This document shows, piece after piece, positions 35,020 through 64,000 of a stretch of 64,000 nucleotides of DNA. The notes under the pieces are model-generated. The model did not search any database and had not been told where the DNA came from. It worked only from the letters and a program-made list of their open reading frames with translations. The position numbers were made by a program, and so were the translations under genes. The stretch comes from Candidatus Thorarchaeota archaeon (lineage in GTDB: Archaea > Asgardarchaeota > Thorarchaeia > Thorarchaeales > Thorarchaeaceae). Position 1 is the stretch's first letter; every line of letters begins with the position of its first letter. Where the stretch lies: NCBI GenBank assembly GCA_048882325.1, contig JBHLRS010000006.1, positions 1-64,000 on the forward strand. The letters are read 5' to 3'.

Positions 35020-38000
35020 TCATTTCTTCCTTGATTTCAAATCCTCATCTATGCTTTTCAAGAGATCATCAACTAAAGCGCTAGGAAGATTCTTAGCTTG
35101 CTTCACAATATTATTCACTTCCTCCGGTGGGAGCCCTCTATTCTCAAGCTGTTTTCGAAGGTCCTCAATTTCAAAATCGGTAAGCTTGTCTTCAAACTCG
35201 GATTCCTGAATTGGTATCTCAAGTTTAGTATCATCGAGTGATTTTACAAATTCCTCTATCTTTTCCTTCGGGGCTGTTTCAGCCTCTTTCATGATTGCCT
35301 CAATTTCTATTTCTGGTACTTTCCGCCGAACCAACTCTGCTTCTAAATCAGCACACTCTTCTTCTGTTAAAGTCACAACTTTCTTTCTACGTTTCATTTT
35401 CTTCGGTTTTTCTGTTTTCTTGAAAAACTCAAGTGCAAGCTCCTTAGGAAGACTTCTTGCTTGTTCAACGATTGACTCGATTTCACGATCACTAGCTTTT
35501 CGCTTAATCAGCTCAGAACGAAGATTTTCAATTTCCTCTTCTGTGAGATGTTCAACCTTTTCTTCAACAGGTTTTGGTTTTTCTTTAGCCAGAATACTCT
35601 GAAGAAGCATCTGGACTACATCTTTTGGAAGTTCTCTGGCTTGTGTGACAAAGGACTCAATTTCATGCTCTGGAATTCCTCGTTTTTCAAGTTGTTCAGT
35701 CATTGTGTTCAATTCTAATTCTCTTAGCTGATGTTCGATATCGAGTCCTTCTTCTTCTGGCTCAGAGATATCAGCATCTTCTTCAACTACAGCGTAAATG
35801 TCTGGTTTAGCTACTATAGCAGCTCCACCAATTCTCTTTCTCCTTTCTGCTACAACTTCTTCCATGACCTGTTCTACAGATTTGTTCTGTATACCTGCGA
35901 CTCTAATTGCTTCCTGACTAATTACCTCTCTTACGAAACTGGTTTGCTGACTCAACTTCATCTTTGATATCTCAAATTTGAAGTCATCAAGCTCTTGTTG
36001 AGTCATTTCAGTAAGTATAGCGAGGTCAATAATCAGTTCATCAATTTCAGGCACTTCTATTTTGACTGATTCTGCAGGAATTTGCGAAGCTTCTCTTTTA
36101 ATTCCAACTGGATCATGTAGTTCATTGAATAATTCTGCGACGAGGGATTGTCTTGATCGCACGCCCCTAGCTGGTTTAGGTACTCTACTTCTACGTAATT
36201 GTCTAACCTGACCACTAATTATCCTGATTATCTTTGGCACTCTTAGAATCCTTACCCATACAACACCGAATAGAATCAGGAAGATGGCAAAAGCACTACC
36301 GTAAGTCATTGCGTTCTGCAGAGCAAGATCTTCTTCAGATGGACTTACCGAAACTGAAATCATTACACTGGCTGTTTCATAGTATGTTTTATTGAAGTGA
36401 ATTGTTACTTCCGTGACACCAGCTCTTCTTTTAGCTAATACTCTAAACTGATAATATCCATCGCGACTTTCATCAGGACCTAGATATTCGACAGTGGCAA
36501 ATTGGGGTTCAGAGTTATCAACTATGATACGAGCCTCGGTAATTCCCTCTCCAGAATGACCTAGCCACGCATCGGAATAATAGATCCAAAATGTTGCGTT
36601 CATTCCCCAGTGAAGTGACAGTGCTGACGGTCCTTCCACCTGAAGACTAGTTTGAATCTTGATAATCGTGATCTCGAACACGAATACCGCGGTGGTGTGA
36701 TTTTCTAACATGAATTGGATGTTAAATAATATTGTCGCACCTAAGCCCCAATCAAGTGTGTTGAAAGCGAATGAATAATTACCATTTCCGTGATCGGACA
36801 AAATAAGTGGTTCTTCGTAGACTCTTGGTCCTGTATAGAACGAGTTGTTGGATATTGCGTCTGGAATCCCTCTTGCACCATAGGTGTCATTGTATAACAT
36901 GGTGACCGTAAGTGTATCTCCGTATGGTACTTGTAGTGTTGTCCAGGAATCTCCAATTCGATACAGTTCAGGGAGAAGAATCGAGATGTCCGTGGGGACT
37001 GATGCAATATGAATTCTAATCGTCAATTCTTCATCCTCATAGTTTGCCTTTCGGAACTCCACTGTGATCGTGTAAGTTCCCGGGTTTAGTTTTGATGTAT
37101 CAACTGGAATGCCATAGATTCCTTCACCAAGATATACAGCACTACCTGATCCTCCTGCCCAGGAAAAAGCGGAAAAGTCAGCCTGAATACCTTGTGCATG
37201 ATAACTATCATAGTAGGTGACATTGACAAAACCTGTCCCGCCCCAAACAAACTCATCAGTTCCTGGTGAAAGAATAGTTGCTTCTAGATTTCTCACATAT
37301 ATCGATGTAGAATTATCCGCCCTCTCGTAATCCTGATTGGGTGAATTGGCTGAGATGATGAATGTGTGAAGCGCGGCAATTCCTTGGCTTGTGTCGAAGT
37401 CATAGTAGTAATAACCAGGACCTCCAATTATGGGTCCATTCACTAATGTTCCATTTGTGCCGAGTTCAGGTGAGTTCCATGTAACATTCAGACCGTCTAA
37501 TCCTGTGGAGTACGGATGTGTTGCGTTAAGGGCTGGAGCTAGAACATAAACTCCAATTCTGACAATATCGGACCAGTACACAGATGTATATTCGTAGCTT
37601 AAAGTAGCATTATCGAGCCATACTACCATCTGTATCTTTGAAATTGCCATAATCAGAGTCGCGGATGCATTACCATAGTTGTATTTTGAAGCCCGTAGAC
37701 GAATCTGGTAACTTCCATATCCCGCATTTCCTGTAGGTATTTGAAGTCTGTAATGCCCCTGTTCACCTGATATCTCAGTCACTGTCAAATTGGTGTCATA
37801 CACCCAGCTTCCTACAAGGGTTGCCTCAGAAACATAAGTGCCGTCAAGGATGTCCTCTAGATAGACCTCAACCACAGCAGTAGCGCCATATGATACGGTG
37901 AAGACATAGCCTTCTTCAGGGATGATTTCCATTGGTCTTGGTAAAAGTCTGAAAACCAGCTGATAAGAAGCATCAATATAGTTTGGTGCACTACCTTCAA

Positions 38001-41000: not shown

Positions 41001-44000
41001 GATCCACAGTGACACCAACAAACTCAACACTAATGAAAACGTTGAATGTGTCGTTCGTGATGCCGCCTGTAGATGGGCTTGAATATAGGAAAGTGTAGGT
41101 CATGTAGTCTAGGCATGGAGAAGGAAGAGCTGCTTCAATCAGTGTGAGTTCTGTATCTGCACCAACTATTTCAACTGTAATGGATAGGAACCTGTTCTCA
41201 TACTTTTGGATGCTTCCAGTCCAATTGAAGTAGACTGTGAGTTGTTGAACTCCAATACCTCCAAACTGCAAGGCAACAATTGAAATGGTATAGTATCCAT
41301 CTCCTCTTGCCGTGTCATTATCCCAGGTAGTTGCTAATTGGTGGGTTGCATTCCAGACAGTACACTGAACATCAGAAGATACAATTCCCTGCAAGTGATC
41401 CCGATCCCCGTAATAAACTGAGATATTGATTGTTCCATCTGAAGTTGTGTCATCTACTGGTGAGAGCAGCCTGAGCTCGGTCCTAATGGAGCGAATCACA
41501 ACAGTGACATTGAATGATGCTGATTCATATTCTGCTCCGAATGAAAAATCAAAGACAAGCAGGTACAACGCTAAAGCATCGGTATCAAAGGTGTTGATGG
41601 TGACACTGTAACGGTTGCCCACCCACACAATGTCATAATGAACTGGAGTCCAGTTACAGCTATGACTCACTGTTAAGATTGGTAGGTCATGGTCCATGTC
41701 AATATAATCCACATAGAATGTCTGTGTGTCTCCTACTGGGATTTCTAGAGCTCCGACAGTAGCAGTTGCATATGTTCTGATTTGTCTGACCTGAATGTCT
41801 ATCGATATTATCTTGTCTTCATAGTTTGGTGCTGAAGCGGTGAAGCTCACAGTATAGACACCAATGCCCCATGTGTCGGTTTCAATCGTCACTCGATACC
41901 TGCCACTGGTTATCAGTTCTTGACCAAGCTTCGCAGCCCCAATCACGGTGAAAGTAGCTGTGTCAATTCCCTGTCCTCTATCTATATCAACAAACTCTAA
42001 GGTAACAACTGCATTCGTGCTGTAAGATATCGTCAAAAGTGGAAAGTCGGGTGAGCTTAAATCACAACGTGCTTGAGTGAACTGAAAACTAATGATGGGC
42101 GTCTGAACGTTGGAGTAGTTCTCTGAAACTCCAAATGAAATGAATATCCGTATTCCATATGTTCCTCCTGGGAAGTAGGACTGGTCTAAAGTTATGACAT
42201 ATGTCCCTGCACTTTGAGGTGAAAACGTCTTGATGTTATAGAGTGTACCATTCTTGTCCCTGACAGTGAAATGGCTCTGAAGAAGACCATTTACAGGCAT
42301 GTTATCAAAAGCTGAACTTGACTCATTCACAGTCACATAAGTGATTATCTCAAAATCATCCCCGACTGGGAAGACACCTATATTATCCCACAAAATCATT
42401 GTAGTCAATTTTTTGATGTTCAGAAGTATCGCAGTGGTTCCATCATAGTAATACCTAGGAGTTGTGGTTGTGAAAACTGTGAGGTCAATTGTATAGGTGC
42501 CTAATTCCCAATCCTGGGTTTCAATAAGGAATTGAAGAGATCCGTAACTTGCAGAACCTCCGGTCCATTCTGCGAGAACACTTGATAGGTTTCCGGTTAT
42601 TGCTGTATTTCCTGCATCAAGATCTAGCAACGATAGAGTAACTGTGACATTGGATCCCAAAGGTATAGTTCCATCATAACTGGCCACAACGGTAGTTCTA
42701 TGTGGTCTTATCGCCACTGCAACGGTAACCTCGCCCGCTTTATAGTTCGTGCCAGCTATTGTGAAATTGAACAAATAGATGTCAATACTGTACGAGTCAA
42801 CATCAATTTCGATGGAGTACCTCCCATCGAGTAAGTCTGTATACTGGAATATTCCATCACTACTCAACACACCTCCAGTTATTCCGATACTGCTATGATC
42901 AACATCTTGCCACTCAAGTATAATGGTTGCATTCTCACCCCAAGGTGTACTAACTGGATTGACCTCAACCTGAACCAAATCAGTCTCGATTTTTCTGTAT
43001 TGAACGTTCGCCTCCACAGAGCTATCGATTACGTACATTTGCGAAGGATTTGCATTTATGACAAAACAATGTGTTCCAAAATTCAATCCTGTTGAATCAA
43101 TGTTAACGATATACGTGCCATTGTTATAATCTGTGACACCATTTATTGTACCATTAGAGGTTATGGTGGCTCCTGCATAATATACTCCCGTTATTGCATC
43201 TTGGAGATTCACCCGGATAAGGAAGTCGTCTCCATATGGTGCTGAAGGTGGTGTTTCATAAGTCAACACCGTATTGTGAGATAGCTGCAAATCAAAGAAT
43301 GTTGCTGCATCAACGAGGAGTGGGTGGCTAGAAACAATGTCGAGTCTCCAATTTCCTGGCTGACCTAGATCCGAGGTGTTGAGAGTCTTTCCATAAATGC
43401 CGTTGCCATAATCTTCGAACTGGATTTGTGTCTCGATTCCCAAGACACTCCAGTTCATCATAACCGTGGAACCAACTACATTTTGTGCAGTTTCAATATC
43501 GGTCAGTTGAACCTCGACCTCTAGAAGTTCTCCTGCTGTCCGTACTGAAATTCCATCTCCAATTGCGTCATCTGGTGACAAGAGGTCAAGAGATGAAGCA
43601 TGTTCTACAATGAATAGTCTACTGTATCTTCCAACACGTTCTGGACTCAAGTCCGCCGTGTCGTTGAAGTCGACATGAACCTCCCAAAATCCATTTGGCC
43701 AAGAACCAGTCACGCTGATGCCTGTCCATTCGAACTGACCACTTCCATCTTGGCTCAAGTCATCTGAGCTGTAAAAGACCTGACCGCTTGGGTCTATCAA
43801 TTGAAGTTGCATGGCCGACCCAGGAATCACTGTTGCTGTCCCCCTAAACTTTGCAAGGTCTCCTGTCTGAAGTGTTACAGTATTTCCGTACGCACCAGCA
43901 TTTGCTCCACACTCTAGAAATGACGCCTCATTGTTTGAAGTGAATGTAAATGACCAAACACCTGGGACATCGAGGACTGACGATGGCACAGTGATCTGCA

Positions 44001-47013: not shown

Positions 47014-50000
47014 TTGTCTCCACCTCCTTCTCCTAAGATGCTCTTCAGAAGTTCTTCAGCAAGTTCCTTTGGCAGTTCTCTGGCCTGCTCCATGATTGTT
47101 TCAAGTTCACTTCCCTTAATACCCGCATCCACTAATTGCTGACGTATCTCTTTTAGTTCGTAATCACTAAGCATGTCTTCTGAAACGACTTCTTCGAACT
47201 CTATAGGTTCTAGAAGACTTTCTTCTTTTTCATCAACAATCTTTAGTTCGGCCTTCTCCATAACAAGTTCTGGTCGAAAGACTTCTTCAATATCTTCTCC
47301 TGCAAGAATAGCACGTGCCTTTGCTGCAGTCTCTGCTAGAATCAACTCCATCGGTTTTCTTTCTATCCGTCCTTGTTTGATGGCTTCCTGGTTGATTACC
47401 TCCTTGACAAAAGCAACTTGCTCACTCAATTTCATCTTTGAAACATCAAGTCTGAAGTCTTCAAGTTCATCATCAGTCAAATTCGACAGGATTGATAATT
47501 GAACAAGCAACTCTTCTATTTCAGGAACCTCAGAAGGAATCGCTTCACTTGGAATAGATGAAGCTGTCTTTGTAATTCCAATAGGTCCAGCAATATCATT
47601 GAAGAGATTTGCAACAATCTCCTGTCTAGTGGGAACATTATCTGGTATTTCAGGAATCTTTCCTTTACTGATGGTCTTTACCATCTTTCTTATCTCTCGT
47701 AACCGCTTTGGTATACTGAAAAGCCGAGTCCATAAGACAGCTCCAACCAACAACACGAATCCGATAGGTGCGCCATATATGATTACTCGTTCTATAAGTA
47801 TGTCAAATTCTGACGGTTCCACAGAAATTGCTATGGACACACCAGCAGACTCAAAGTTGTCTTTTGACAGAATAATCGAAACAATTGTTGAGCCTTGGGT
47901 TCTTCGAGATCGTACTCTGATTTCATACCAACCTGGTCTGGAAGAATCAGATTGGTTCAGTGACACAATCACATATCCAGTGTCGAGAGGTGTTGCGTTT
48001 ATTGACCCTCCAGCTATACCCTCACCTGCATGACCAACCCATGCGTCATAATAGAATACCCAGATCGTGTACTCTTTTCCATAGCTCATGGTCAAAGAAG
48101 AAGATCCGTCAACTTGGAGACCTGTTGGAACATTGATGATGGTGATCTGTACTTCTACTGTGGCCCGACTCCAGTTTCCAAGATAGAAGTTTAGAATAAC
48201 CCTATATGGGCTATCACTTACAATCCAACGGCTCGTATCAAACAGTAGGCTGTAGTTTCCATCAGAAATTTCCTCAATCAGGATATAATCCCGTTCAGGA
48301 ATCTCAAGACCAATAACAACCCCGGTGATCTCAGTTGCACCAGGGATGCCTCTATTATACCATGTGTCATTATAGAACAGAACAACTGGAAGTACATCGC
48401 CATAGGGAACTTCCAAGATTAGAGCATCCTCGTCAAGCTGATTCAAGGTTGGTGCAAACACGCGGATAGCTGTAGGAACCTCCTTGACATTGAGTGTAAA
48501 GACCCCTGTTCCTATCTTGTAGTTGTCCAGTATGAAGCGGACAGAAACCGGATAAATTCCTGGTGTTACCAATGATGCATTGATAAACACTTGATAGGTT
48601 CCATTACCAACATACCTGAATGTATTTTCAAGACCATTCCAATCTACGATAACATCTGCACCAGCAATTCCTCTGTCAAATAGGAGGTCCCAGTAGGTGA
48701 GATTAACCCAACCTGTCCAACCCCATATCTTAGGACTTAGGTACGTTGATTCAACTGATGTTTCGATTGGTTCGATGATTAGTGTAGTAAAATTGCTGGA
48801 ATAAGCAAACATACCAATGTTTGGGTGTGCTGTGATTCTTAGAGTGTATGTTGATGCAGAATAGTCGAAGGTATTGAAATCGAAGTAGAAATACCCTGGA
48901 CCTCCAATCAATGATCCATTCAGGAATTCACCAGTAAAAATTGTTCCTGACAGAGACCACTGCACAGTGCAGTTTGCTAAGCCAGTTGATAATGGATAGG
49001 ATACATTCAATGATGGCGCAAGGACATATACTCCAACTCGAATTATGTCTGACCAATTGAAGGTACGAGTACTATATGTCGAGGTTAAAGCATCAAGCAT
49101 GACAACGGTTGATATCTGTTTGATTTTTACACTTACAGACGTAGTTGCTGTAACGTAGTTTGTTCTATCAGCTCTTACTGTAAGAACATATTCTTGAACA
49201 AACAGGTCATTAGTGTCAACAAACCCAGTATAGTATCCATCCAATCCCGGAACTGGGGAAAGAGTAATGCTCTGTTCACCTTGAGCAACCCAAGTCACTT
49301 CGACAGTCGCTCCCAGCAGGGGAGTATTAGTATAGGTATTATTGACATATACAGTGATATTCACAGGAGTGCCTTTGAAAACTTCTGGTTGGGTGTTACT
49401 AACAACAGTCAACTCAAGTGAAAGTTTCAATACATTCACAGTAAGTTGACCAGTTATTGTTTCATAGTTATTGAGCGTGGCTGTAATTGATACAACATAG
49501 GTTGTGGCTACAGCGAGATTTCCGGAATCAATCGTAATGGTGTAATTCCCCGGATCTGTTACCACTTCGGTAAGACTGCCACTCAGAACTCCAAACTGAT
49601 ACTCAAGATTTGCACCAGATATCAGGATGTTATCTCGAGTATCATTAAAGATGGCCCAGATAGAAACATCTTCACCCCAGTAGACATCGGGGATAGTCTG
49701 AGGTAGAATAAGCTCTGTGGAAATGCTTAGGATTTGAACTGGTACTGAAACATCTGAGATGAAATAGTCACTCTTCTGTGCACCAACAACCAGTGTGTAG
49801 AGGCCTGAATCAAGACTAGTTGTAGTCAGAGTAATATTGTATAAGCCTGGTCCAATTGACACGTAATCTGGTGTGTATCCGATGTCTGGCCATGTTAATG
49901 TCAGAACGGCACCATCAATCGGTGCATAACCTGCATCAATGTCAACGAGCTCAACAATAACATATGTTGTTTCGCCATAGTATGTGGCTGGAGCTACAAT

Positions 50001-53000: not shown

Positions 53001-56000
53001 AGTCTGATAATTCGGACCTTTAGAGAAGGTGAACATTACCAAGTAACTACCGAGACCATCTGTGTCCGTACTTGGTAATTCGATTCTATACTGGTCACCT
53101 GTCCAACTAATACTCAAAGAATACGTCCAGTTATGGTTGATAGTTGCTCCGAGGATAGGTGCGTCATGTGTGATATCCCAATAGTCTGCGTAAAAGACTG
53201 CAGTGTCTCCAACTGGCAAATCTATGATAGAAACTGATGATCTAGCGTAGGCATATGCAATTTGGACAAGAATTTGAAAAGTCAGTGTTTTTGCTTGGTA
53301 TCCGTTTGCATCTGCTGTTAGATTAACCTCATGAGTACCGAGGTCCCATCCCTGTACAATGATCAGAACCTCATACACTCCGTTTCCGGTGTGTCGCCAG
53401 ACAATCGATGCCCCCTCTGAAGTTATTGTACCGATAGTTATGTTCTGTACATGATCAATGTCAACATACGACAATGTGACGGTGACATTTGTGTCAAAAC
53501 TTGTTGTCACTGTAGGATAGTCTGGTGATGATAGATATGTAAGAATCGGACGGTATGAAAACGTAACCTCTGGTGTGCTGCTGTCCGTATAGTTTTCTGC
53601 TGGCAGGAAATCAACAAAGACCTTTATCTTGTATTGCCCTTCAAGAAATCTTGTACTATCAATTGTGATTTGATAGACCCCTTCTCCGAGGTTTATGAAA
53701 CTCTCGAAGGTGTAAGGGTTCCCTGTTTCGTTAGTAGCACTAAAGTAAGACTGGTCAAGTCCCGTAATTGGCGTACCATCTATTGGATTTCCCGGCTCAC
53801 TGACGTTCACGTATACAAACATCACAAAGTCATTTCCATTTGGAAATGGCTCAAGCGGATCCCAACTCAGGTATACATTCAGTTTTCGAATCTCAAGTTG
53901 GATTTCGAGGTAAGAATCCATATAGAATCTCGGAGCTCCAATTGCATTGATTGTCACATTGATTGTATACGACCCAATGGCCCAACCACTTGTATCCAAC
54001 CAGAAACTGAACGCAGGGAAACTATCGCTTCCTGTGCCCCAATCCAGATTCACCTGACTCAGATTTCCACCACCAATTGATACTGAGTAAAGGTCCAAAT
54101 CCAGCCAAGAAACATCAAAGTACGCATCAGTGCCCACTGGTATTGTTGAGTTATAGTTTATACTTGGTGTTGTTCTATGGGCTAGAATTGTGATACTTAT
54201 AGTTGACATTGATGATTGGTAATTCTGTTTTGAGAATGTCAAATTGAAGTAGTAGGTCCCAGGAGTAAAGGAACTGACATCGATTGTTAGGCTGTAGTAG
54301 CCGCCTCCATCGTCATTAAGTTGAGTCTGAACAAATGGGGATATTGATATTGAGCCTCCATCAACTCCAATTCCCGCATGGTCAACATCAGACCAGTATA
54401 TGCTAGTATTAGCCTGATGTCCCCATGGCGACTCAACAGCATCAGGGTTAAGAGGGGTTACTTCAGTAGCAATGCCTCGATAATTGAATTGAACATCAAT
54501 ATTACTACTCAGTAGGTATGAAGTACTTGGGGATGTCGTGAACCTAAATGTATGTTCTCCAACGGAGAAACCTGTACTATCAATTGTTACTAGATATGTT
54601 CCATTTCCATAATCTGTTGGTAAACCTAGTATTGTCGCATTACAAGAAATAGTGGCACCTGTCAATGGGGTATTATCGAATTTGTCTCTAAGTGTCAGTT
54701 TAACCTCAAAATTACCTCCATATGGTGTGTCCTTAGGCGGTTCGTACGTGAGGAAGGTTCTATGAGAGAGATCCAAATAGAAGAAGTCTGTTGCATTTGT
54801 ATAGAATGGATGTGATGACTCAAGATCTAACCTCCATCGCCCATAGCTTCCCAGATCAGATGTATTGAGTGTCGTCCCATATCTGCCATCTCCATAGTCA
54901 TTGAGCTGGACATTAGTTGGTACTCCACTAACACTCCAGTTCATCGAAACTTCTGCTCCACTTAACATTGCAGTAGTCAATGTATCTTTCAGTTCAAACT
55001 CAACATAGAGCTGTTCTCCAATGAGTTTGGTCGAAATTCCATCTGCTATCGCATCTCCAGGTGCTATGAGACCTAATGAAGTCCCACGTTTCACAATGAA
55101 ACTTCTAGAAAACGTGCCCACCCTGTAATTTACATCAGAACTGCTATCACTATATCGGGCTGATGCATGCCAGACTCCTGCGGGAGCAGAGGCATCCAGA
55201 TTAATAGGGGCAGATTCCGAATATCCACTAGTTTCTTCCGAACTGACAGAATAGAAAACACTTGGATTATTCTGGTTCTCGAACTCAGTATTAATCCACG
55301 CACTAGATCGTGCAATATCGGAAATTCGCACTTCATCGATCTGCCCTATCCATGGGAAGGTCCATGCTTTTCCCTCTGGCTGGTCTGCATGCCCAATTCG
55401 GAATGAATCCGGAAGGGCTGACAAGATATTTGTTGTCATCTCCATTGTTGCTGCGTCTTGGCTGCCATCAATATAGAATTTCACAAGGGAGCCATCATAT
55501 GTGGCAACTACATGGTGCCACCCATTGGGCGCAATAGTCTGACTAGTACCCAAATCATAGGTGCCACCAGTAGGTCTAGGACCCAGATTAATCCTCATGT
55601 TTTGACTATTCTGAGACATGGTAAATCGATATCCACTGTACCACCCTTTGTGATTGAAGGGACCCATATTTGGATGTGTAGCGGATGGATACTGCATCCA
55701 AAGCTGAAGCGTAATCTGGTTGCCCGTAATATCAAGACTAGTGGCATTCCCACAGTCGATAAAGTGATCTGTGAAGTCTTGTCCGTAACCAATTCGTGTT
55801 GCCACCCTAGATGGTACATAACTGACATTTCCATCACCACCTTGCCCATGGTTATTGTAGAGGCTACTGTCTGCATATTCATCTACAAGTCCTGCACCAA
55901 TCTCTCCAAGATGCCAGACTCCTACATAGTTCGAATCCCAGACCGGTCCTGATGCATAAACTATAGGAGCCAATGGATTGTCGTAGTACATACTGATTAT

Positions 56001-59000
56001 TGTGTCACTTGAGCAAGAGAGCAATGGAACTTTTACCCATGCTACGAGATGCGCGTGAGTCAAGTTGTACGCTTGGTCGAAGAGTTCTATCTCATGTGAA
56101 AGTGTTTCTTCACCAATCGCGAATGCGATATCTCTACCATCAGGGCGGACATCTGTGCGGAGGTCTGTGTCGTATATGTCTATTAGAACTGGGAAGTTGG
56201 CAAGATCCTCTGCCACATTCTCATGACTGACTGTCAAGGTTTTCCTGTGATAGTATGGTAGTGTGAATCGATCTCCCTGATTTATAGTAGCTCCCGTATA
56301 CCAGGCTGAGCCTGATGGGTCTGTCAGCTCAAGAGCGATTGTTGACCCTGTAATCCACGAACTCCTTATTCTGAACTGGATGTCTTCACCCAATGTGAAC
56401 TGGTCGGTGGAAGAATAAGGTCCTCCACTTGGTCCAATTTGCATGTCAAGAATATGGTTTCTGTCTAGGAATTTGATTTGCCACATGCCATATTCATCAA
56501 TCGCTGTTGAAGCAACCGTTAGTCTACCATCAAAACATGTCCAATCCGATGCGTATGCTTTTTCAACACCTGAAGGGCTTGTAACAGAAAGTGGCCACCA
56601 ATCACCATCTGGATAGGAAATCTCGAATGAAATATCAACTATTTCAGACGGCGGGGAAATCAACACACCCGTAGTCCAAACTGGTACGCTTCCATTAGCA
56701 ATTGAGAAGGTTGTTCCTAGGCTGAAGTCATCTGCGTAGGTATAAAACGAAGTTTGGACTTCTAGTGTCAATTCAGCTCCAATTGTAACAGCAGACGCAG
56801 AGCTTGTTGTGAAAAGGTATTCTATACCGCTGATTTGTACCTCTGATCCAATAGAAAGGAAGGAGCTTGGATCGTTTTGATTGTTGTATTCCGTGATTAC
56901 CCAACCTGGAGATTGGACCGCAGTAGACACTCGAATTTCATCAAATTTCCCTAGAAAACGACTGGCGGTATCAAGTTGATTTCCTCCCCAAAGCCAATCA
57001 CCAAGACTTGCTAACTGTGTCCACTCTGTTGGTACATTTTCTGCGGCAAGAATCATTGGTGCTCCATCTAGGTAAATGATGACACTCTTTGTAGAATAGT
57101 CCAGTGTGAGCACAAGATGATGCCATACATTGTTTGTGAATGGGTCAGTGGCAAGGTTATAATCAATGCTGTTGCCACCCCAAGGATAGAAGAAGTGGTC
57201 ACCATCAGGTTGAACAGCCCATTCAAAGCCATCATCTTGTAGAAGTGTTGGTGGAGGAGCGGGATTCAATATGAACCGGTCACTGGTTGTCATAACTCGC
57301 TGATATCCTCCATCAGCGGAATCTACCCAATTGATCCATAATGAAAGAGTACCTGCGTATTTTACCGAATCCAGACTGGAACTTTCAGATACATTGATCA
57401 TGTCATCGACTCCATCCAACGCAAATCCACTTCCAATTTGCCCTGGAACGAGAGCTGAACCACTCATGGACCCCAAAGTTGCGCCATCATTATTGTATGG
57501 GCTACTATCATAAACTGTTCCTGTTGGAGTTTCCTCCAGATGCCACACACCTGCATAATTACCCCAGACCGCACTCGGATTTTCTTGAGCTGTCAAATCT
57601 GGGTTGCCATAATACATTGTGATTGTTGTGTCAACAGACGAGGAAAGGTCTGTTTTGACCCAGACCATTAGATGTGCATGTGTTGCATTATAGGTCTGGT
57701 CGAAGTAAGTAATCTCGTGTGGACACCAGCTTTGTCCGTTCCTGAACATGATGTCATCTCCATCAGATTGAACATCATTTCTAAGATCTGTGTCAAAGAT
57801 GTCAATGAGAACCGGGAAGTCAGTAAGGTCTGTAGCGACTTTTGCATGATCAACCACTAAATCCTTTTTGTATTGAAAATCAGTAGCTCGAGCTCTTGAT
57901 TGATATCCAACCCGGAGAGTTGTTTCCTCTCCTATTGAGTAGAAGCTTGACGGGTCATTTTGGTTTCTGTACTCTGTTGTAATCCAAGAGGCTGAGTGAG
58001 CAATACTTGAGATGCGGATTTCATCCATGGTGCCATTGACCATTCTGTCTAAATCAATTGTACCAGCTATGTTATCCACTGAGAGGGTGTTTGCACCTAC
58101 TGTTTCATCCTGTTGTATCCAAACACCATTAATATAGAGATCTCCAAAATCCCCTGACCTTACAAAAACAATATGCTGCCATGCATCCGCTACAACTGAA
58201 CTTGATGGGAAATCGAAATACTCAGCATCTGTAGCTGTTTCAACTCGTATCCTACCATTATAGTAAGAAATCCTATTAAGATAGGCATCTGCACCCATGA
58301 AATTGACTTCGCTATTGGGTCCCGGTGGAAATCCCACAGGATATACCCAAAATGAATAGGTTCCAGTGGACTGCGTATTAGAACTCTGCAAAGCAATGAA
58401 ATCATCTGTGCCGTCGAAATCATATCCATATCCCATGCGACCAGTAATTCCTTGAGTGGGTCCTCCCATTAAAGTACCATCTGGTCCACCAGAAACTGAA
58501 TCTCTCGAAACACCGGAGGTTTCTCCGAGATGCCAAACCCCCCAATAATTATCATTCCAGACACCATTCTGATTCTCCTGATTTGTTGCTGAGGGATTTC
58601 CGTAGAACATAGTAACAATCGTGTCAACTGTAGACGAGAGATTGGTCTTGACCCACGCAACAAGATGAGCATGCGTCGAGTTGTAGTTCTGATCAAAGAG
58701 CTCAATTTCATGTGGTAGGACTGTAGTACCAAGTTTGAAGATAATGTCATCACCATCTATCTGGACTTTTGCCCTCAAATCAGTGTCAAATAAATCAACA
58801 AGTAATGGGAAGTCTGTCAGGTCTGAGTCGACCTTCGTGTGGTCAACAGTTAAGTCCTTCTTGTAATCAAATTCGATAAGCTGCATTGATACTTCTGTAC
58901 CTACCGAATAGAAACCGGATGGATCGTTCTGATTTAGATACTCTGTCGCAATCCAGTCTGGGGAAAGAGAAACATTGAGGATTCTAAATTCTGAGATTGC

Positions 59001-62000
59001 TCCGGAGCCCCACATGTTTCCACCACTTAAATCGGACAGAATAGCTAATTGATTCCAGGTTAGGTGTGGATTTGCGTTATCTGCACTATTATCTTCCGCA
59101 TCCAATGTGCCATTCAAATAATGATATGCCCTTACCGCAGACATTGATCTTACCCATGCAAATTGGAACCATGTATCAGCTTCCCATGAACTCTTGCTTC
59201 CAGTACAGGTTTCGTCAATATCTGACGTGACCTCCATATGTGTCACGACCAAACCTGAACTCGCGGCAAATCTCATCAAAGGGTAGTCATTTGTTAGACT
59301 GTTTCCTCTGAAGAAGTGCATATCACTTCCTGGTGGGAAGACACTATCAAGGGCAAACCACGATTGAAATGTGAAATCATTTACAGGTCCTGAAATCCCG
59401 TTGATGCTAAATCTATCATCTAATCCATCCACAGCAATCGCAGTTCCTAGTTCACCGTCATATACCCTCTGGTCCGAACCAAATCCAGTTGCTGTCAGGT
59501 CATACCCATTAATTGTACTGTCTTTTATCAAGGAAGATGATGGATCTTGATTCATATGCCAAACCGCAACATAATTACTATTCCATACATCAGATGGATT
59601 CTCTTGATTACTTAAACCGGGATTTCCATAATACATCGAGATTGTTGTATCTACAGTGGAAGAAAGGTCAGTCTTGACCCAGGCGACAAGATGAGCATGC
59701 GTCGAGTTGTACGTCTGATTAAAGAGCTCTAGTTCGTGAGGCAATATTGTGTTGCCAATTGTGAAGATGATATCATCACCGTCAGATTGAGTCTTTGTCT
59801 GTAGATCACTATCAAAGATGTCAACAAGTAGTGGAAAGTCAACTAAATCTGCCGCAACTTTTGTATGATCAATGCTTATTTCTTTCTTGTAGTTGAATAC
59901 AAGGTCTTGAGATATTTCGGGACTGATTATACTTGTAGGTTCCGGACTCACAAAAGGTCTGAGAAACGCGTCATCTGCAATAACCGTGTTGGGTTCTGTC
60001 TGAGGTGCAGCCCAGTAAAAAACCGTACAGAACCTATCTATGCCCTCTGTTCCAAGATTTACTCCAGTTACTTCAATCTCAAGATTTCCGTCGAGCCATA
60101 ATCTAGCTTCACCGACAGTATCAGAGATCTTAGCCTGCATATCTAGTGTATGCCAAGAACCCGTGGAAATCGTACTTGTCGTTCCATAACCATATGCCTC
60201 ATCAACAACATCATTCCACATATACAGAGTCATGTCATCTCTAATTGTTACACTAAGTTGGTTTTGCCACACCGCGGAGGTGTCAACATATTGCATTATT
60301 GTGACATGATCGCTGGTGGAGAATCCTGCTGGTAGGTAGAAATGTACTCTTGCAAACAGATTCGATTTGTCACTGAAATCCTTCCAGACCATGGCTTGAG
60401 CGGCTGCCACATCGTCAACATCTCCCCTTACTGCATAGGTTCCGGAATGAACTGGAATCAGTGGTGTATTCAACACAATCAGTGTGTCACCAGTGTCTGT
60501 ATATGAACCATCCCAAGCGCTAAGATCCCCGCTCTCAAAACCATCATAGAATTGGAACACGTTCGTGTAGTCATTTGGTGGATTAGTAACAGTGGGATTT
60601 CCGTAGTATATGAAGTACTGATCATCGGAGGAGTATGCAGGAATATCCGTTTGAATTCTGAACCATATCTTTGCGGTCGCGGAATTCCAAGAAGAGTCAA
60701 AATCTAATATCCTGTCCAATTCAGTCAAACTTAGACCATTCCAGTACATTATCCGTAGATCATCACCATCAATTTGCGATTTCCCTGCAGCGACTAATGA
60801 TGCATGATCAATAGTCACTGAAGTCGTATATCCAGCAGGGACAAGTTCGGATCCTGAAGTAATGGTGACTTGCCTGCTGTATTCATATGTCACAGCAGTC
60901 GTGGTTTCAATTTCAACTGCATAGAATGAACTTGGGTCATTCTGGTTGTTAAATTCAGTAACAATCCATCCTAGATTTCTATAAGAGTTTGAAACCCGAA
61001 CCTCATCAATTCGGCCATCCCACTCTTGAATGAAACCAACTGACCCTGGATTATTGGCAATGTGAATTACTGATGTGCCCGTTTGAGTTGAGCCGGTGTA
61101 AGCTGCATTTCCACGCTCAACTCCATCAACATACAAGCGCAGTTCGCCAGTATCTGCATTTGCCACACCCGCAACATGATGCCACTGCCCATCATTCACC
61201 CAGCTTAGTGATGTTGTTACACTCTGAGTGTCGTCAACATAAAATGCGAGAGTCGAACTGTCCAATTTCCCTAGCCAATAGTTTCTGTGACCCACATCTC
61301 CCCATTTGGCGACTATCGCATCTGAAGAACCATCAATATTGTTTGTCCTTACCCACGCTTCTACCAGCATGTCTGAGGGAAGGACGAGTGAAGAGGAGTG
61401 AGGCGCTTCAATTCTGTCGTTGGTTGCCTCTCCGTAGAACTCAGAGCACCCGTCTATTTTCCCTGTCTGAAGAGTAGGTTCAGAGCCAAGTGGGTACCCT
61501 ATACCATCGTTTCCATTTGCTGTGCTATCGTAGACAGTCCCGGCTGGGTCTTCACTGAGATGCCACACAGCTGCAAAGGAAGTATCCCAGACACCATTGG
61601 GGTTTTCCTGACTCTCTGAACTGGAATCTCCATAGTACATCGATAGGACAGTATCAGTTGAAGCAGAGAGGTCAGCTCTCACCCAAGCGATAAGGTGTCC
61701 ATGCGAGGAATTGTATGATTGGTCAAACAGCTCAATCTCGTGCGGGAGTATCCATCCATCCTTCACAAACACAATGTCATCACCATCTGCTTGTACATCA
61801 AATCGAAGGTCTGCATCATAAAGATCGATAAGGACCGGAAATCCATAGAGGTCTGAGGCAACCTTGGTATGGTCGATGATGATGTCTTTCTTGTACATGA
61901 ATTCAAGTGGAACTTTCTTTGGAATTATGACCTCTTGCTCAACTCCCAGCGAATAGAAGCTGGACGGATCAAATTGGTTATTGTACTCTGTGAGAATCCA

Positions 62001-64000
62001 TGCAGGTGACCGTGCAACATACGATAATCGAAACTCATCGAGAGATCCATTAACGGGGGCTGAATCTCTGGATATCTGCAGGTCTCGGATGCTGGTGATG
62101 TCATCAACCATGCTTACGTCAACAGGAGTAGCAATCAAATTTCCGTCCATATAATATCTCATTAGATTATCAGATCTATCAACTGTCACAGCATAATAGA
62201 TCCATGCGTTGAGTGTAAAATCAACATAGGTGGATGATATTCTATCAACCCCATCGTTTACCAAGGCTTCGGTCTTTGTGGCGGCAGTATTTGTCGCAAG
62301 GGAATACCCTGGATCTGTCAATCCAGTAGATCCTTTGTATATTATATCTTGATAGTACCCTGTGCCACCGTCAAAGAATACCCAAATGCTGAAGGTCAAG
62401 TCGTTTGCTCCGAAATCAAGATCCCTATCCGCAGGATTTCCAAAATTAATGGAATCATCGATTCCATCCACATCATTTGCATTACCTATTTTACCAGATG
62501 CTCCTTGGGTGACACCTCCAAGAGGAATCCCATCATTATCATGTGCAGTTGAGTCGAGGGCATTACCACTAGTATCCCCAAGATGCCACACCCCAGCATA
62601 CGTGTAGCTCCATACCCCAACAGGATTTTCCTGACTCCCCATCGACGGATTGCTATAAAACATTGACAATACAGTATCAGTCGTGGATGAAAGGTCCATC
62701 CTCACCCAAGCTACCAAGTGAGCATGCGTAGAGTTGTATTGCTGGTCGAACAACTCTATTTCATGTGGAAGACTCCTGCCATTTGATGTGAACATTATGT
62801 CATCACCATCTGGTTGGACGTCTTTATGTAAGTCTGAGTCATAGATGTCAATCAATACTGGGAACCCTGTAAGATCAGATGCCACTTTATTATGGTCAAT
62901 AGTGATATCTTTCATATATCGAAAATTGACACCCTCTTCGCCTACTGTCAAAAATAATCCTGGATTTCTTTGATTATTGTATTGAGTTCTAATCCAGGCA
63001 TCTGATCTAGCAACAGTCGAAACCCGTACTTCATCAACAATACCATCAAAATAAGATGTTCCACCTGGATTATCGGACCTGCGACCAATTCTAAATGGAC
63101 GATTTGGATCATTCATAGATGCTGGTGTACCGGTTGTTATTTGGTCTACCAGCTCGCCATTCAAATAGAATCTCGCATATAATGAGGGTTGGAACACTCC
63201 CACGACATGGTACCATTGGCCAGTTTCAACACGTTCATAGCCAATGCTTGTGGTAGATACACCATCTGGACTAAATCTGAACATCACCCAACCTGCAGGA
63301 CTTATGGATGAATCAACGTCAAAACTGAGATCCCACCCACGGAAGTTGTTCTCAGCTGACTTGACAACAAGATAGTCATTATCAATAAAGTCCGCCTTGA
63401 ACCAAGATTCAACTGTGATTGCTCCAGTTATCTGCAGCTCTGCTGGATTTCCAAAATCAATGTAGTCGTTCACGCCCTCAAGATCAATAGCATTTCCAAA
63501 TTGACCGCTAACACTGTCACTAGATGTCATTGTCCCATAGGTTGAACCATCAAGACCTAGTAAAGTGCTATCAACGATTTGAGGTTGGTGCGGTAGATAA
63601 TCAGCTGATGTGGAATCCCATTGTGGTTGTGCAGGGTCATCATTCAGATGCCAAACAGCAGAATAGCCTGAGTCCCAGACATTCAGTGGATCTTCTTGAC
63701 TACCAAGGTCCTCGTCGCCATACACCATTACTAGGGTCGTGTCCTCAATAGATGACAAATACGGGACATTAACCCAGCAAACCAGATGTGCATGAGTTCC
63801 ATTTCCTTTCTTATCAAACAACTCAAGCTCATGAGGAATAATCTGGTCATTGTAAAGGAATGCGATGTCATCACCATCTGGCTGAACATCGATGTGTAGG
63901 TCCTCATCCCATATATCCACCAAGACTGGAAAGTTCTGAAGGTCTGAAACAACCCTAGTGTGGTCTATCACTAGGTTTTTGTTATATCGAAAGCTGGGAA
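47010..64000 (-). CDS. Giant (>5653 aa, 5'-truncated by the window) surface protein: at least 8 DUF2341-LamG modules, Ig-like stalk, C-terminal TM, cytoplasmic tail
   Basis: Frame stays open to 64000 (PSFRYNKNLVIDH...), so the GTG at 63971 is internal. Stalk and tail are collinear with the 3997-aa protein; TM APIGFVLLVGAVLW. Confidence 0.92.
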   Translation of the reverse strand, partial: PSFRYNKNLVIDHTRVVSDLQNFPVLVDIWDEDLHIDVQPDGDDIAFLYNDQIIPHELELFDKKGNGTHAHLVCWVNVPYLSSIEDTTLVMVYGDEDLGSQEDPLNVWDSGYSAVWHLNDDPAQPQWDSTSADYLPHQPQIVDSTLLGLDGSTYGTMTSSDSVSGQFGNAIDLEGVNDYIDFGNPAELQITGAITVESWFKADFIDNDYLVVKSAENNFRGWDLSFDVDSSISPAGWVMFRFSPDGVSTTSIGYERVETGQWYHVVGVFQPSLYARFYLNGELVDQITTGTPASMNDPNRPFRIGRRSDNPGGTSYFDGIVDEVRVSTVARSDAWIRTQYNNQRNPGLFLTVGEEGVNFRYMKDITIDHNKVASDLTGFPVLIDIYDSDLHKDVQPDGDDIMFTSNGRSLPHEIELFDQQYNSTHAHLVAWVRMDLSSTTDTVLSMFYSNPSMGSQENPVGVWSYTYAGVWHLGDTSGNALDSTAHDNDGIPLGGVTQGASGKIGNANDVDGIDDSINFGNPADRDLDFGANDLTFSIWVFFDGGTGYYQDIIYKGSTGLTDPGYSLATNTAATKTEALVNDGVDRISSTYVDFTLNAWIYYAVTVDRSDNLMRYYMDGNLIATPVDVSMVDDITSIRDLQISRDSAPVNGSLDEFRLSYVARSPAWILTEYNNQFDPSSFYSLGVEQEVIIPKKVPLEFMYKKDIIIDHTKVASDLYGFPVLIDLYDADLRFDVQADGDDIVFVKDGWILPHEIELFDQSYNSSHGHLIAWVRADLSASTDTVLSMYYGDSSSESQENPNGVWDTSFAAVWHLSEDPAGTVYDSTANGNDGIGYPLGSEPTLQTGKIDGCSEFYGEATNDRIEAPHSSSLVLPSDMLVEAWVRTNNIDGSSDAIVAKWGDVGHRNYWLGKLDSSTLAFYVDDTQSVTTSLSWVNDGQWHHVAGVANADTGELRLYVDGVERGNAAYTGSTQTGTSVIHIANNPGSVGFIQEWDGRIDEVRVSNSYRNLGWIVTEFNNQNDPSSFYAVEIETTTAVTYEYSRQVTITSGSELVPAGYTTSVTIDHASLVAAGKSQIDGDDLRIMYWNGLSLTELDRILDFDSSWNSATAKIWFRIQTDIPAYSSDDQYFIYYGNPTVTNPPNDYTNVFQFYDGFESGDLSAWDGSYTDTGDTLIVLNTPLIPVHSGTYAVRGDVDDVAAAQAMVWKDFSDKSNLFARVHFYLPAGFSTSDHVTIMQYVDTSAVWQNQLSVTIRDDMTLYMWNDVVDEAYGYGTTSTISTGSWHTLDMQAKISDTVGEARLWLDGNLEIEVTGVNLGTEGIDRFCTVFYWAAPQTEPNTVIADDAFLRPFVSPEPTSIISPEISQDLVFNYKKEISIDHTKVAADLVDFPLLVDIFDSDLQTKTQSDGDDIIFTIGNTILPHELELFNQTYNSTHAHLVAWVKTDLSSTVDTTISMYYGNPGLSNQENPSDVWNSNYVAVWHMNQDPSSSLIKDSTINGYDLTATGFGSDQRVYDGELGTAIAVDGLDDRFSINGISGPVNDFTFQSWFALDSVFPPGSDMHFFRGNSLTNDYPLMRFAASSGLVVTHMEVTSDIDETCTGSKSSWEADTWFQFAWVRSMSAVRAYHYLNGTLDAEDNSADNANPHLTWNQLAILSDLSGGNMWGSGAISEFRILNVSLSPDWIATEYLNQNDPSGFYSVGTEVSMQLIEFDYKKDLTVDHTKVDSDLTDFPLLVDLFDTDLRAKVQIDGDDIIFKLGTTVLPHEIELFDQNYNSTHAHLVAWVKTNLSSTVDTIVTMFYGNPSATNQENQNGVWNDNYWGVWHLGETSGVSRDSVSGGPDGTLMGGPTQGITGRMGYGYDFDGTDDFIALQSSNTQSTGTYSFWVYPVGFPPGPNSEVNFMGADAYLNRISYYNGRIRVETATDAEYFDFPSSSVVADAWQHIVFVRSGDFGDLYINGVWIQQDETVGANTLSVDNIAGTIDLDRMVNGTMDEIRISSIAHSASWITTEYRNQNDPSSFYSIGEETTLRVGYQSRARATDFQYKKDLVVDHAKVATDLTDFPVLIDIFDTDLRNDVQSDGDDIMFRNGQSWCPHEITYFDQTYNATHAHLMVWVKTDLSSSVDTTITMYYGNPDLTAQENPSAVWGNYAGVWHLEETPTGTVYDSSPYNNDGATLGSMSGSALVPGQIGSGFALDGVDDMINVSESSSLDSVKYAGTLSLWINWVDSADGGYQRVMTTSDRFILNPAPPPTLLQDDGFEWAVQPDGDHFFYPWGGNSIDYNLATDPFTNNVWHHLVLTLDYSTKSVIIYLDGAPMILAAENVPTEWTQLASLGDWLWGGNQLDTASRFLGKFDEIRVSTAVQSPGWVITEYNNQNDPSSFLSIGSEVQISGIEYLFTTSSASAVTIGAELTLEVQTSFYTYADDFSLGTTFSIANGSVPVWTTGVLISPPSEIVDISFEISYPDGDWWPLSVTSPSGVEKAYASDWTCFDGRLTVASTAIDEYGMWQIKFLDRNHILDMQIGPSGGPYSSTDQFTLGEDIQFRIRSSWITGSTIALELTDPSGSAWYTGATINQGDRFTLPYYHRKTLTVSHENVAEDLANFPVLIDIYDTDLRTDVRPDGRDIAFAIGEETLSHEIELFDQAYNLTHAHLVAWVKVPLLSCSSDTIISMYYDNPLAPIVYASGPVWDSNYVGVWHLGEIGAGLVDEYADSSLYNNHGQGGDGNVSYVPSRVATRIGYGQDFTDHFIDCGNATSLDITGNQITLQLWMQYPSATHPNMGPFNHKGWYSGYRFTMSQNSQNMRINLGPRPTGGTYDLGTSQTIAPNGWHHVVATYDGSLVKFYIDGSQDAATMEMTTNILSALPDSFRIGHADQPEGKAWTFPWIGQIDEVRISDIARSSAWINTEFENQNNPSVFYSVSSEETSGYSESAPINLDASAPAGVWHASARYSDSSSDVNYRVGTFSRSFIVKRGTSLGLIAPGDAIADGISTKLIGEQLYVEFELKDTLTTAMLSGAEVSMNWSVSGVPTNVQLNDYGDGRYGTTLNTSDLGSYGRWRLDLESSHPFYTNATDFFYLDLSHRTFLTYEPPKDTPYGGNFEVKLTLRDKFDNTPLTGATISCNATILGLPTDYGNGTYLVTIDSTGFSVGEHTFRFTTSPSTSYLLSSNIDVQFNYRGIATEVTPLNPDAVESPWGHQANTSIYWSDVDHAGIGVDGGSISISPFVQTQLNDDGGGYYSLTIDVSSFTPGTYYFNLTFSKQNYQSSMSTISITILAHRTTPSINYNSTIPVGTDAYFDVSWLDLDLYSVSIGGGNLSQVNLDWGTGSDSFPAFSFWLDTSGWAIGSYTINVTINAIGAPRFYMDSYLEIQLEIRKLNVYLSWDPLEPFPNGNDFVMFVYVNVSEPGNPIDGTPITGLDQSYFSATNETGNPYTFESFINLGEGVYQITIDSTRFLEGQYKIKVFVDFLPAENYTDSSTPEVTFSYRPILTYLSSPDYPTVTTSFDTNVTVTLSYVDIDHVQNITIGTITSEGASIVWRHTGNGVYEVLIIVQGWDLGTHEVNLTADANGYQAKTLTFQILVQIAYAYARSSVSIIDLPVGDTAVFYADYWDITHDAPILGATINHNWTYSLSISWTGDQYRIELPSTDTDGLGSYLVMFTFSKGPNYQTGYFNLSIIVRTHLTEFRLASAIEPTSYNAMVNISVYCGDLDNDVGIAEAPIALSVYGDSGLIPATYENDTVLGDGYYIIRFAATNLGSSGIFDLTVYFNWTGPVQKYLNGSLFASIRIIGEASNLELFDSAEPTPYLGNLTYTYVYSELYSGIGISNVSAPAGNVHIYVNFVGYSFNPSLYTITEDSGNPGYYSIMFNSTMFGKPGIYTMIVYVNWSKGVDPGYGNWTDTVSVRIIPRSTVVNLIPPESTPYGVNATFAFSFDDVAEGIAYSVANSSQMTITIGLPDYTITYNESIRQFHVSFNTSILGAPLGARQFSIGVVWTGSPFYTNVTGRNVIISVRFRETEFDYSAISPAPYGDNVTLHVSFTDVTEGASQTIDDGLVTLYNGVQEIPVSEYSFSPLGNGDYEIELKTTYFSNPGTYAITIEMSTSHFYYALVAATRTLSLQYRLTVVLVEPVAETPYNNSLEIVFHYSDVLTLADIGNTSTPTTIKILNGSSWIFSSVWRGASEDYLLTVQTYNQILEINKEYVLWIELSYPDAAPFYLSSEAFISFTLRERTTNLELTSSPEPTQYLEKINFTVYYQDTLSLSGIAGATITLTIGGSDLVEGVDYLLQSPAIGRYSISLNTTSIGPAGTNVNLQLTASWISAPPYYSTSVLSLTLSVTKRNSITEILTSTTLVRYLENVTFTIRYSDDSTGQEILFNKDQLLIYSEGTPLQGNDFSMMYRSPGYEVSINSSILKIGLISSWNITFYIEWQDNVAPYYADGRVSTWVNVVNRVGIVIRESSPTVPIHDNMTLEFRYVDDSTGAGINNAIVLFDCLSPSGLIEGVDFWVFQNNGNYSILVDTTSLGSTGTFTFSLRLLWNPTLEPFYRNTTMLYLQGTVRLIQTQLTNEEPNPSTVPIHDNVSVVLNLQDLDHSSPIIGAEGSFSVTYKTNTSGPSTWSIIPISPGVYELVVDCSDAGVTGTNALTITLSFMDYQTVEIQVPFQIRLRQGELNEIVAPATYYGETTYVIVELVDIDAGYAPIDGAVLTLTWPDIGYTPDYVSIGPGLYNITLTTTSLDSGLYTLVVGAQKSDYFISDVSVPVQILSISTELILPQTIPDVYWGEDVSIWAIFNDTRDNILISGANLEYQFGVLSGSLTEVVTDPGNYTITIDSGNLAVATTYVVSITATLNNYETITGQLTVNVLKLSLELTVVSNTQPEVFKGTPVNITVYVNNTYTNTPLLGATVEVTWVAQGEQSITLSPVPGLDGYYTGFVDTNDLFVQEYVLTVRADRTNYVTATTSVSVKIKQISTVVMLDALTSTYSTRTFNWSDIIRVGVYVLAPSLNVSYPLSTGLANCTVQWSLSGTIFTGEFLNGSLIGGPGYFYFDFNTFDYSASTYTLRITAHPNIGMFAYSSNFTTLIIEPIETSVESTYLSPKIWGWTGWVNLTYWDLLFDRGIAGADVIVDWNGLENTFRYVGNGTYQVFINASLVTPGIYPVSVRFILDNYKIGTGVFTLNVKEVPTAIRVFAPTLNQLDEDALILEVPYGDVLPVVLFYNDTWYNRGIPGATEITGVVIGLEIPERDYILIEEISDGNYSLLFDTSRWIVSDSPYRVILNFYLGNWSRATVEVQITIINVPTGLQVDGSSSLTMSYGKEYTIWVFYYDAWVGHAGEGIAGGSINATPLDTGYVIVSLNQSDSSRPGWYEIRVRSRRTQGSTIVSIILSKDNFESAGVSIAISVEPSEFDILIERVIIYGAPIGFVLLVGAVLWTRLFSIPKRLREIRKMVKTISKGKIPEIPDNVPTRQEIVANLFNDIAGPIGITKTASSIPSEAIPSEVPEIEELLVQLSILSNLTDDELEDFRLDVSKMKLSEQVAFVKEVINQEAIKQGRIERKPMELILAETAAKARAILAGEDIEEVFRPELVMEKAELKIVDEKEESLLEPIEFEEVVSEDMLSDYELKEIRQQLVDAGIKGSELETIMEQARELPKELAEELLKSILGEGGGDK
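56840..64000 (-). repeat. Tandem array of seven ~1-kb DUF2341+LamG modules
   Basis: Module starts near 63990, 62925, 61902, 60888, 59898, 58872 and 57879. Consensus FxYxKxxxIDHxKVxxDLxxFPxLxD...DGDDI...HExELF...N(S/A)THAHL..WV...WH(L/M)...DExRxS..WIxTEYxNQ; module 4 is divergent. Confidence 0.9.

Follow-up and report, generated by a model that had tools for sequence, protein, structure and literature searches.

The window analysed here (64,000 nucleotides (nt) of a Thorarchaeota contig) comprised the first 64 kb of a 126-kb contig, contig 6, of a 3.6-Mb genome in 89 contigs. Two minus-strand open reading frames (ORFs; 35020..47013 and 47010..63998+) occupied positions 35020-64000, and the upstream and downstream giant genes were designated A and B. 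They probably form an operon of two genes whose products, giant type-I surface glycoproteins, are paralogues and are co-built in one coat or adhesion structure; this is the reading we favour for the locus as a whole, with fair confidence. The family was largely restricted to Thorarchaeota-type Asgard archaea.

Gene A runs past the window end. The whole gene lies at 47010-65591 of contig 6, with an ATG at contig base 65591, and encodes a product of 6,193 amino acids (aa) beginning with a classical signal peptide, MKKAGATIAIVVIFLVPLVG. The first ~531 aa of A (signal peptide and two-domain head) thus fall outside the window.

47010..64000, minus strand: gene A (upstream giant), window part
35020..47013, minus strand: gene B (downstream giant), 3,997 aa, from the ORF listing

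By blastp, A and B were paralogous along their entire length: A3445-6188 matched B1079-3810 with 38% identity in an alignment of 2,763 columns that took in the whole stalk and ran on through the first tail repeat, and the heads (A11-909 and B42-922) with 35% identity. A sequence-only reading of the window had taken the two genes to be collinear, and this held from the stalk through the transmembrane (TM) helix and the juxtamembrane domain. Common to A and B was the order signal peptide, two beta-sandwiches resembling carbohydrate-binding modules (CBMs), DUF2341-LamG module(s), stalk, TM helix and tail, the tail itself opening with a basic juxtamembrane motif, followed by a helical domain, then an acidic linker and finally the three-helix bundle(s). 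The parts were located as follows.

55221..63986, minus strand: A modules, aa 536-3457, seven canonical DUF2341-LamG units (Pfam and our own module hidden Markov model, HMM)
59892-60854, minus strand: A variant module, ~aa 1580-1900, DUF2341 plus a Polysacc_lyase-like half (PF14099)
~56250-56806, minus strand: A "X" beta domain of ~190 aa, ahead of the last module (module analysis)
47802..55220, minus strand: A stalk, aa 3458-5930, an N-X-S/T-rich series of about 22-25 predicted beta-sandwich repeats of divergent sequence
47709..47801, minus strand: A transmembrane helix, aa 5931-5961 (hydrophobicity; a helix in the model)
47013..47708, minus strand: A tail of 232 aa, with basic juxtamembrane helix, helical domain, acidic disordered linker and one three-helix bundle
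45343..46923, minus strand: B head, ~505 aa forming two CBM-like beta-sandwiches, with the signal-anchor h-region (aa 31-53) ahead of it (structure model)
43750..45342, minus strand: B DUF2341-LamG module (one only, aa 558-905), followed by the "X" domain (aa 906-1088) (blastp, module HMM)
36313..43749, minus strand: B stalk, aa 1089-3567, aligning collinearly with that of A
36226..36312, minus strand: B transmembrane helix, aa 3568-3596 (hydrophobicity)
35779..36225, minus strand: B juxtamembrane basic motif and conserved helical domain, ~aa 3597-3745 (alignment)
35041..35733, minus strand: B four three-helix-bundle repeats of ~50 aa, aa 3761-3991, on an acidic/basic linker

The tail profile hit six ORFs in this genome, all of them giants, which made up three tandem pairs on contig 6 (A/B), contig 19 and contig 16; the first member of the contig 19 pair was truncated where that contig begins. 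An open N-terminal head fragment of 485 aa at the end of another contig (C36, 29467-30922), homologous to the A and B heads, is probably the missing 5' end of this truncated giant. All 24 other genomes of the genus contained matches, and all three pair types recurred, with sizes of about 5,900-6,550 + 3,980 aa, about 4,100 + 3,180 aa and about 2,570-2,900 + 2,590 aa; A/B belonged to type 1. Same-contig tandem pairs numbered 23 (5, 5 and 13 by type), one of them in a sister family, and the remaining members stood at contig ends. No single gene with both flanks assembled was found in the genus, so that pairing is the rule and the genes do not occur mostly alone.

On the scale of the phylum, the full tail was present in 72 of the 76 genomes of the family and in all 19 of one other family. 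Other Asgard families gave matches to the TM helix and basic motif only, on shorter surface proteins in arrays of 3-5, indicating that tandem duplication is a habit of the family. The named database relatives of B all came from "Candidatus Thorarchaeota" or "Sifarchaeia" and were annotated as hypothetical, DUF2341 or LamG-like.

The junction of A and B was read directly from the sequence. The plus-strand "tcat" at 47010-47013 is ATGA on the minus strand, and the B start overlaps the A stop there; the Shine-Dalgarno site for B, GGAGGTGGAG, lies within the last A codons (GGGDK). Both the overlap and the site inside the upstream gene had been noticed before, and both stand.

47010..47027, minus strand: coupling junction, with GGAGGTGGAG at 47018-47027, a 4-nt spacer and ATGA at 47010-47013

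Such a 4-nt overlap behind an internal GGAGG points to a single mRNA for A and B, on which B would be translated in coupling with A. Independent sediment-metagenome contigs from two studies bridged positions 46010-49000 with 1-6 letter differences and without any indel; the junction is therefore genuine and did not arise in assembly. An ATGA or GTGA overlap with a GGAGG site was also present in five distant type-1 Thorarchaeota contigs from public data (tail identity 43-47%), where a giant gene with LamG stood immediately upstream; for one of these contigs, the start given in the annotation was too far downstream. Type-3 pairs had an equivalent overlap junction, and the ATG led straight into a textbook signal peptide. 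Elsewhere in the window, 4-nt start/stop overlaps between same-strand ORFs occurred at 9450/9453, 18213/18216 and 22643/22646 (n = 3).

The stalks were ~2,480 aa long and had a periodicity of 97-116 aa, plus a lag-2 signal. The description of the stalk as immunoglobulin (Ig)-like was upheld in its repeat nature, and the Ig-like class was reached indirectly: Pfam matches were all below threshold and all in Ig-like/E-set families, and the language-model neighbours of the stalk were archaeal repeat proteins with Big_3_5/MG4. From these signals, an Ig-like nature of the repeats is a well-supported inference. Ectodomains were rich in S, T, N and G and poor in K and R, and contained 66-82 N-X-S/T sequons against 33-59 expected; these were concentrated in the stalk (12-17 per 500 aa, about twice expectation). 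The tails held one sequon and consisted of 22% D/E and 13-17% K/R.

That the partners have stalks of matched length was substantiated by counting gaps. In the 2,450 aa that precede the TM helix, only 23 gap positions separated A from B at 39% identity, the largest gap being at most 4 aa. In the same comparison the type-3 partners had 39-52 gap positions at 32% identity and the type-2 partners 152, against 282-322 in non-partner paralogues at 29-33% identity. B orthologues retained a length of 3,938-4,004 aa down to 45% tail identity. No near-identical block that would point to recent gene conversion between A and B was found, the identity per 100 aa being 0.23-0.53. This matching is the strongest indirect argument that A and B work side by side; it would also be expected if both proteins simply must reach equal height in one coat.

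The same gap counts bear on the possibility that A and B are independent adhesins, duplicated fibres that differ in head and tail valency, act separately and share only an operon. Tandem arrays of variable size among the Asgard relatives, the generic 4-nt overlaps of operons in this genome, the origin of each pair in its own duplication (see below) and heads that vary by type would all fit such fibres, but separate action gives no reason for near-identical stalk lengths in partners while non-partners drift, nor for a coupling signal kept in two separately duplicated pair types. We consider independent action rather unlikely, and co-assembly of A and B in one surface structure likely.

The heads carried domains of glycan-binding type. 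In A, Laminin_G_3 (PF13385) was matched at E 2.3e-110 with 365.9 bits (cut-off 27.6), in seven stretches plus one in an overlapping second half, and DUF2341 (PF10102) with 126.4 bits (cut-off 23.4); the canonical DUF2341-LamG unit measured ~345 aa. The variant module matched PF14099 with 46.6 bits (cut-off 29.9), and its ConA-like half may be a binding-only domain rather than a lyase. Counts by Pfam, the module HMM and repeat analysis agreed with the earlier assignment to the upstream protein of at least eight modules (seven canonical and one lyase-like variant) and one tail repeat. The B module gave no Pfam Laminin_G_3 report and scored 284 bits against the HMM built from the A modules; its DUF2341 part, homologous to the A units, reached 20.5 bits, slightly below the Pfam cut-off.

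The model of the B head, from a 12-row alignment, contained two beta-sandwiches (predicted local distance difference test (pLDDT) 69.8, predicted TM-score (pTM) 0.70), the first 90 residues being unreliable. The first sandwich resembled CBM4/22/61/70-type modules, among them a hyaluronan-binding module (4d0q_A, Z 12.3). The second (~aa 356-545), CBM96/DNRLRE-like by fold, resembled a chondroitin-sulfate CBM (8wab_B, Z 15.6, 170 aligned) and the CBM96 alginate CBM 7vbo_A (Z 13.4, 157 aligned, root-mean-square deviation 3.2), and Foldseek matched the head to a tandem CBM22 (E 1.6e-7). No NCBIfam family, DNRLRE NF033679 included, matched the A or B head at E up to 0.1. CBM96 reportedly shares ~30% identity with DNRLRE-domain members (PMC9971899), so the label "DNRLRE-like" is reasonable at the level of fold. 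The sequence-only reading had given the downstream protein one module, four tail repeats and a DNRLRE-like head of its own. The two counts were right; the head was not unique, for A bears a homologous ~510-aa head and only seemed to lack it because the window end cuts it off.

Public runs covered positions 45000-46000, the B head and LamG region, by short contigs only and with two allele sets, which suggests strain variation or a collapse of paralogous modules in short-read assemblies. In two genomes (G001, locus L003; G012, locus L015) the type-3 upstream gene was ~300 aa longer than its orthologues and had NHL-like repeats close to its N-terminal end, indicating that heads are swapped on a constant stalk.

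The tails lie inside the cell, as had been proposed, because each protein has an N-terminal signal peptide and one TM helix and follows the positive-inside rule, with a K/R-rich stretch directly after the helix in both A and B. Anchoring by archaeosortase (PGF-CTERM) was rejected: there was no PGF motif before the helix, and a folded domain of 180-400 aa followed it in 33 of 33 aligned members. The B tail had 401 aa, with four bundles at ~60-aa spacing where A had one. In a tail model with a mean pLDDT of 82.6, the TM helix and the basic helix were followed by a ~75-residue helical domain, an acidic linker that was disordered and, at the end, the three-helix bundle. Across 107 sequences five tail positions were invariant, including a Pro and an Arg just inside the membrane. 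Among 1.84 billion representatives the tail profile found only 223 clusters, always at the C-end of long proteins or in fragments.

Structure searches with the tail model returned a best E of 1.1 in the PDB by Foldseek, a TM-score of at most 0.28 in the ESM Atlas and, in a wide VIA-align search, a best Z of 5.7 (a death domain and generic three-helix bundles), negatives which do not show that the fold is new. An Atlas feature search gave no usable match, and Pfam and NCBIfam gave only sub-threshold noise (DUF6074 with 21 bits, EAD1). For the tail repeats, SAP, HeH, LEM and Rho_N showed no match at E up to 10, the unit being modelled as a three-helix bundle, and no support was found for an SAP/HeH or UBA-like reading of the pattern L..E..LR..L..RG...E.E.I..QA. 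Against the PDB, the repeat profile matched only designed helical repeats and a polycystin-2 helix-loop-helix. Complex prediction for A (TM and juxtamembrane part, 180 aa) with B (175 aa), using 107-row alignments, scored 0.00, which weighs neither way.

Reciprocal expansion, outside in one protein and inside in the other, had been put forward as a feature of the pair. It was present in the A/B type, where the upstream:downstream ratios were 8:1 for modules and 1:4 for tail repeats, and was conserved in its orthogroups. It was absent from type 2 (2:1 and 1:1) and type 3 (0:0 and 1:1).

A tree was built from the last 500 stalk residues, the TM helix and the juxtamembrane domain. Both members of each pair type grouped together, and the long separating stems predated the genus. 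Forcing all upstream genes into one clade, a group named after the tree had been inspected, cost 355 log-likelihood units (approximately unbiased (AU) test, p 3.7e-6). An ancient alpha/beta subunit split was ruled out by the tree and this test. The pairs thus stem from separate tandem duplications, or from early homogenisation, and not from one ancestral two-subunit system. With a duplication of its own for each pair type, there is no conserved lineage of "ligand subunits" or of "scaffold subunits".

These results bear on a stricter form of pairing, an obligate 1:1 heterodimer, stalk beside stalk, in which A binds ligand and B serves as the intracellular scaffold with the logic of an integrin-type receptor. 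For it speak the start/stop overlap and internal Shine-Dalgarno site conserved across deep type-1 lineages, both members kept in every genome of the genus where the contigs permit checking, the few indels between partner stalks compared with non-partners at similar divergence, and the 8:1 and 1:4 asymmetry conserved in the type-1 orthogroups. But the upstream genes are not a clade, so that every pair would have had to evolve the two roles afresh; the reciprocity is missing from types 2 and 3, B has a LamG module and keeps the head in full, other Asgard families have their relatives in arrays of 3-5, and one B-type gene has no adjacent partner. We regard the strict heterodimer as doubtful, and the proposed division into a ligand-binding and a scaffolding subunit was not sustained, given the separate duplications, the pair types without reciprocity and the glycan-binding-type head that B shares with A.

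Several observations weigh against the operon of co-built surface glycoproteins that we favour. Overlaps of 4 nt are routine in this genome; the A/B overlap therefore marks an operon and is in itself not unusual. Nor is coupling universal, since the genes of type-2 pairs do not overlap and stand ~105 nt apart. The scaffolded genome GCA_020348985.1 has a B-type gene without an upstream giant; its other giant genes contain N-runs, and the sister lineage keeps the pair. The CBM and LamG fold classes, on which glycan binding is predicated, also occur in proteins that are not lectins.

Under the favoured reading, a Sec-type signal peptide would export each protein and the single C-terminal helix would anchor it. 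The far end would present the glycan-binding-type domains, two CBM-like sandwiches followed by eight (A) or one (B) DUF2341-LamG units, on a fixed-length, presumably N-glycosylated rod of about 22-25 distinct beta-sandwich domains. A and B would thereby hold heads of different valency at equal height, which may bind polysaccharide or the glycans of partner cells. Inside the cell, the basic juxtamembrane motif, the small helical domain and an acidic flexible leash would lead to the terminal three-helix bundle, or four in B. A cytoplasmic partner may dock on the tail, holding the protein or reading it out from inside, and B would then offer four docking sites.

The neighbouring and related genes were examined. 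A cytoplasmic leucine-rich-repeat (LRR) protein of 207 aa (LRR_8, E 1.4e-11) was encoded on the minus strand at 65767-66390 of contig 6, 175 nt upstream of A. An LRR gene occupied the equivalent position in one other genome (G005), and in both G001 and G012 the type-3 pairs had LRR genes a few kb away. As a tail partner the LRR protein was set aside: the type-3 LRR genes stand ~3 kb off behind other genes, and repeat similarity weakens the clustering. On the plus strand of the same contig, 66582-67889 and 68013-69260 encoded tandem paralogues of 435 and 415 aa with a C-terminal Ras/Roc-type GTPase domain and an N-terminal part of ~210-230 aa that belonged to no family; they are divergently oriented to the unit of LRR gene, A and B, and are conserved in G005.

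Smaller surface proteins of other Asgard families, which share the TM helix and the YPxxVRKIRK-type basic motif, were directly followed by a conserved cytoplasmic protein of ~375 aa that matched no Pfam family. This protein is a possible partner of the juxtamembrane motif. Its loci were as follows.

L041:295-1422, L047:339-1490 (G231) and L043:2040-3155 (G026): ~375-aa protein in other families
C13:37171-38355 and C36:13374-14612: homologues in this genome, not adjoining giants, the C36 copy beside a GTPase-like ORF

Elsewhere in the window, 24104-25327 (minus strand) encoded a 407-aa protein with an IFT52 GIFT domain (PF23355, E 5.4e-14, above the cut-off) and DUF4350/ThuA-like matches; IFT52 GIFT is a eukaryote-associated domain name, met here in an Asgard genome.

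Giant bacterial adhesins with Ig repeats (SiiE, LapA and Bap-type proteins) follow the same logic of head, rod and anchor, with tens of beta-sandwich repeats keeping a binding tip clear of the cell. They use type I secretion system or sortase routes, and their repeats are usually near-identical and variable in number, whereas those of A and B are divergent and fixed in number. We know of none among them with a C-terminal TM helix and a folded cytoplasmic domain.

The subunits of integrin alpha/beta heterodimers are type-I proteins that cross the membrane once, have large ectodomains and dock adaptors inside the cell through their cytoplasmic tails. The likeness to A and B is one of analogy only. 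To our knowledge the two integrin chains are not paralogous to one another, unlike A and B. It is conceivable, though we think it improbable, that the coupled pairs are heteromeric transmembrane receptors in which glycan binding at the tip, tens of nm out, is relayed via the matched stalks to tails recruiting a cytoplasmic partner, e.g. a small-GTPase/cytoskeletal module, with the B bundles as a multivalent platform. If true, Asgard archaea, the nearest lineage to eukaryotes, would have evolved on their own a counterpart of the eukaryotic adhesion receptors.

The nearest published architecture was that of PySLP, a 292-kDa "colossal" surface-layer (S-layer) protein of Pyrobaculum arsenaticum with homologues in Thermoproteota (bioRxiv 10.64898/2026.08.21.746120). 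Compared by architecture, it shares with A and B the signal peptide, a long domain array, one C-terminal TM helix and a basic stretch inside the membrane. PySLP differs in its short basic tail, its single gene, its lattice/crown region and its want of LamG or CBM heads, whereas A and B have folded tails of 232 and 401 aa, CBM and LamG heads and conserved tandem pairs.

This likeness raises the possibility that A and B are the main scaffold of the cell envelope, an S-layer-like structure or canopy whose LamG and CBM heads would bind glycans of the cell itself, or adjacent subunits, rather than foreign ligands. A PySLP-like build with many putative Ig-like domains, the strictly conserved ectodomain length and the matches in 24 of 24 related genomes of the genus agree with it, as does electron cryotomography of a Lokiarchaeon, the one member of the Asgard archaea to have been imaged in detail, which showed no ordered S-layer and many protruding "complex surface proteins" of unknown identity (PMC9834061). 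The PySLP homologues have a short basic tail ending in Lys, however, where folded tails of 180-400 aa occur here, and three different pairs per genome with variable heads fit adhesins better than one lattice protein. We judge the scaffold unlikely, and still prefer the operon of co-built surface glycoproteins.

Within the limits of the literature searched, no published description of the tail, the pairing or the coupling was found. A class of archaeal "huge proteins" with N-terminal Laminin_G_3, of a function not understood, includes three from Thorarchaeota (PMC11573180). Like A, these are archaeal proteins of more than 5,000 aa in which Laminin_G_3 dominates towards the N-terminus. Neither a tail nor pairing nor topology is described in that survey. 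Two features of A and B were thus not found described for archaeal surface proteins: a folded cytoplasmic tail kept lineage-wide, and co-translated paralogue pairs with length-matched stalks.

Asgard surface proteins have been proposed to mediate cell-cell contacts relevant to eukaryogenesis (PMC9834061), and the family offers concrete Thorarchaeota candidates for them. If a cytoplasmic partner of the tail exists, it would open a direct way to study outside-in coupling in these archaea; failing such a partner, the A/B family would still supply the best-defined candidates for the Thorarchaeota cell coat.

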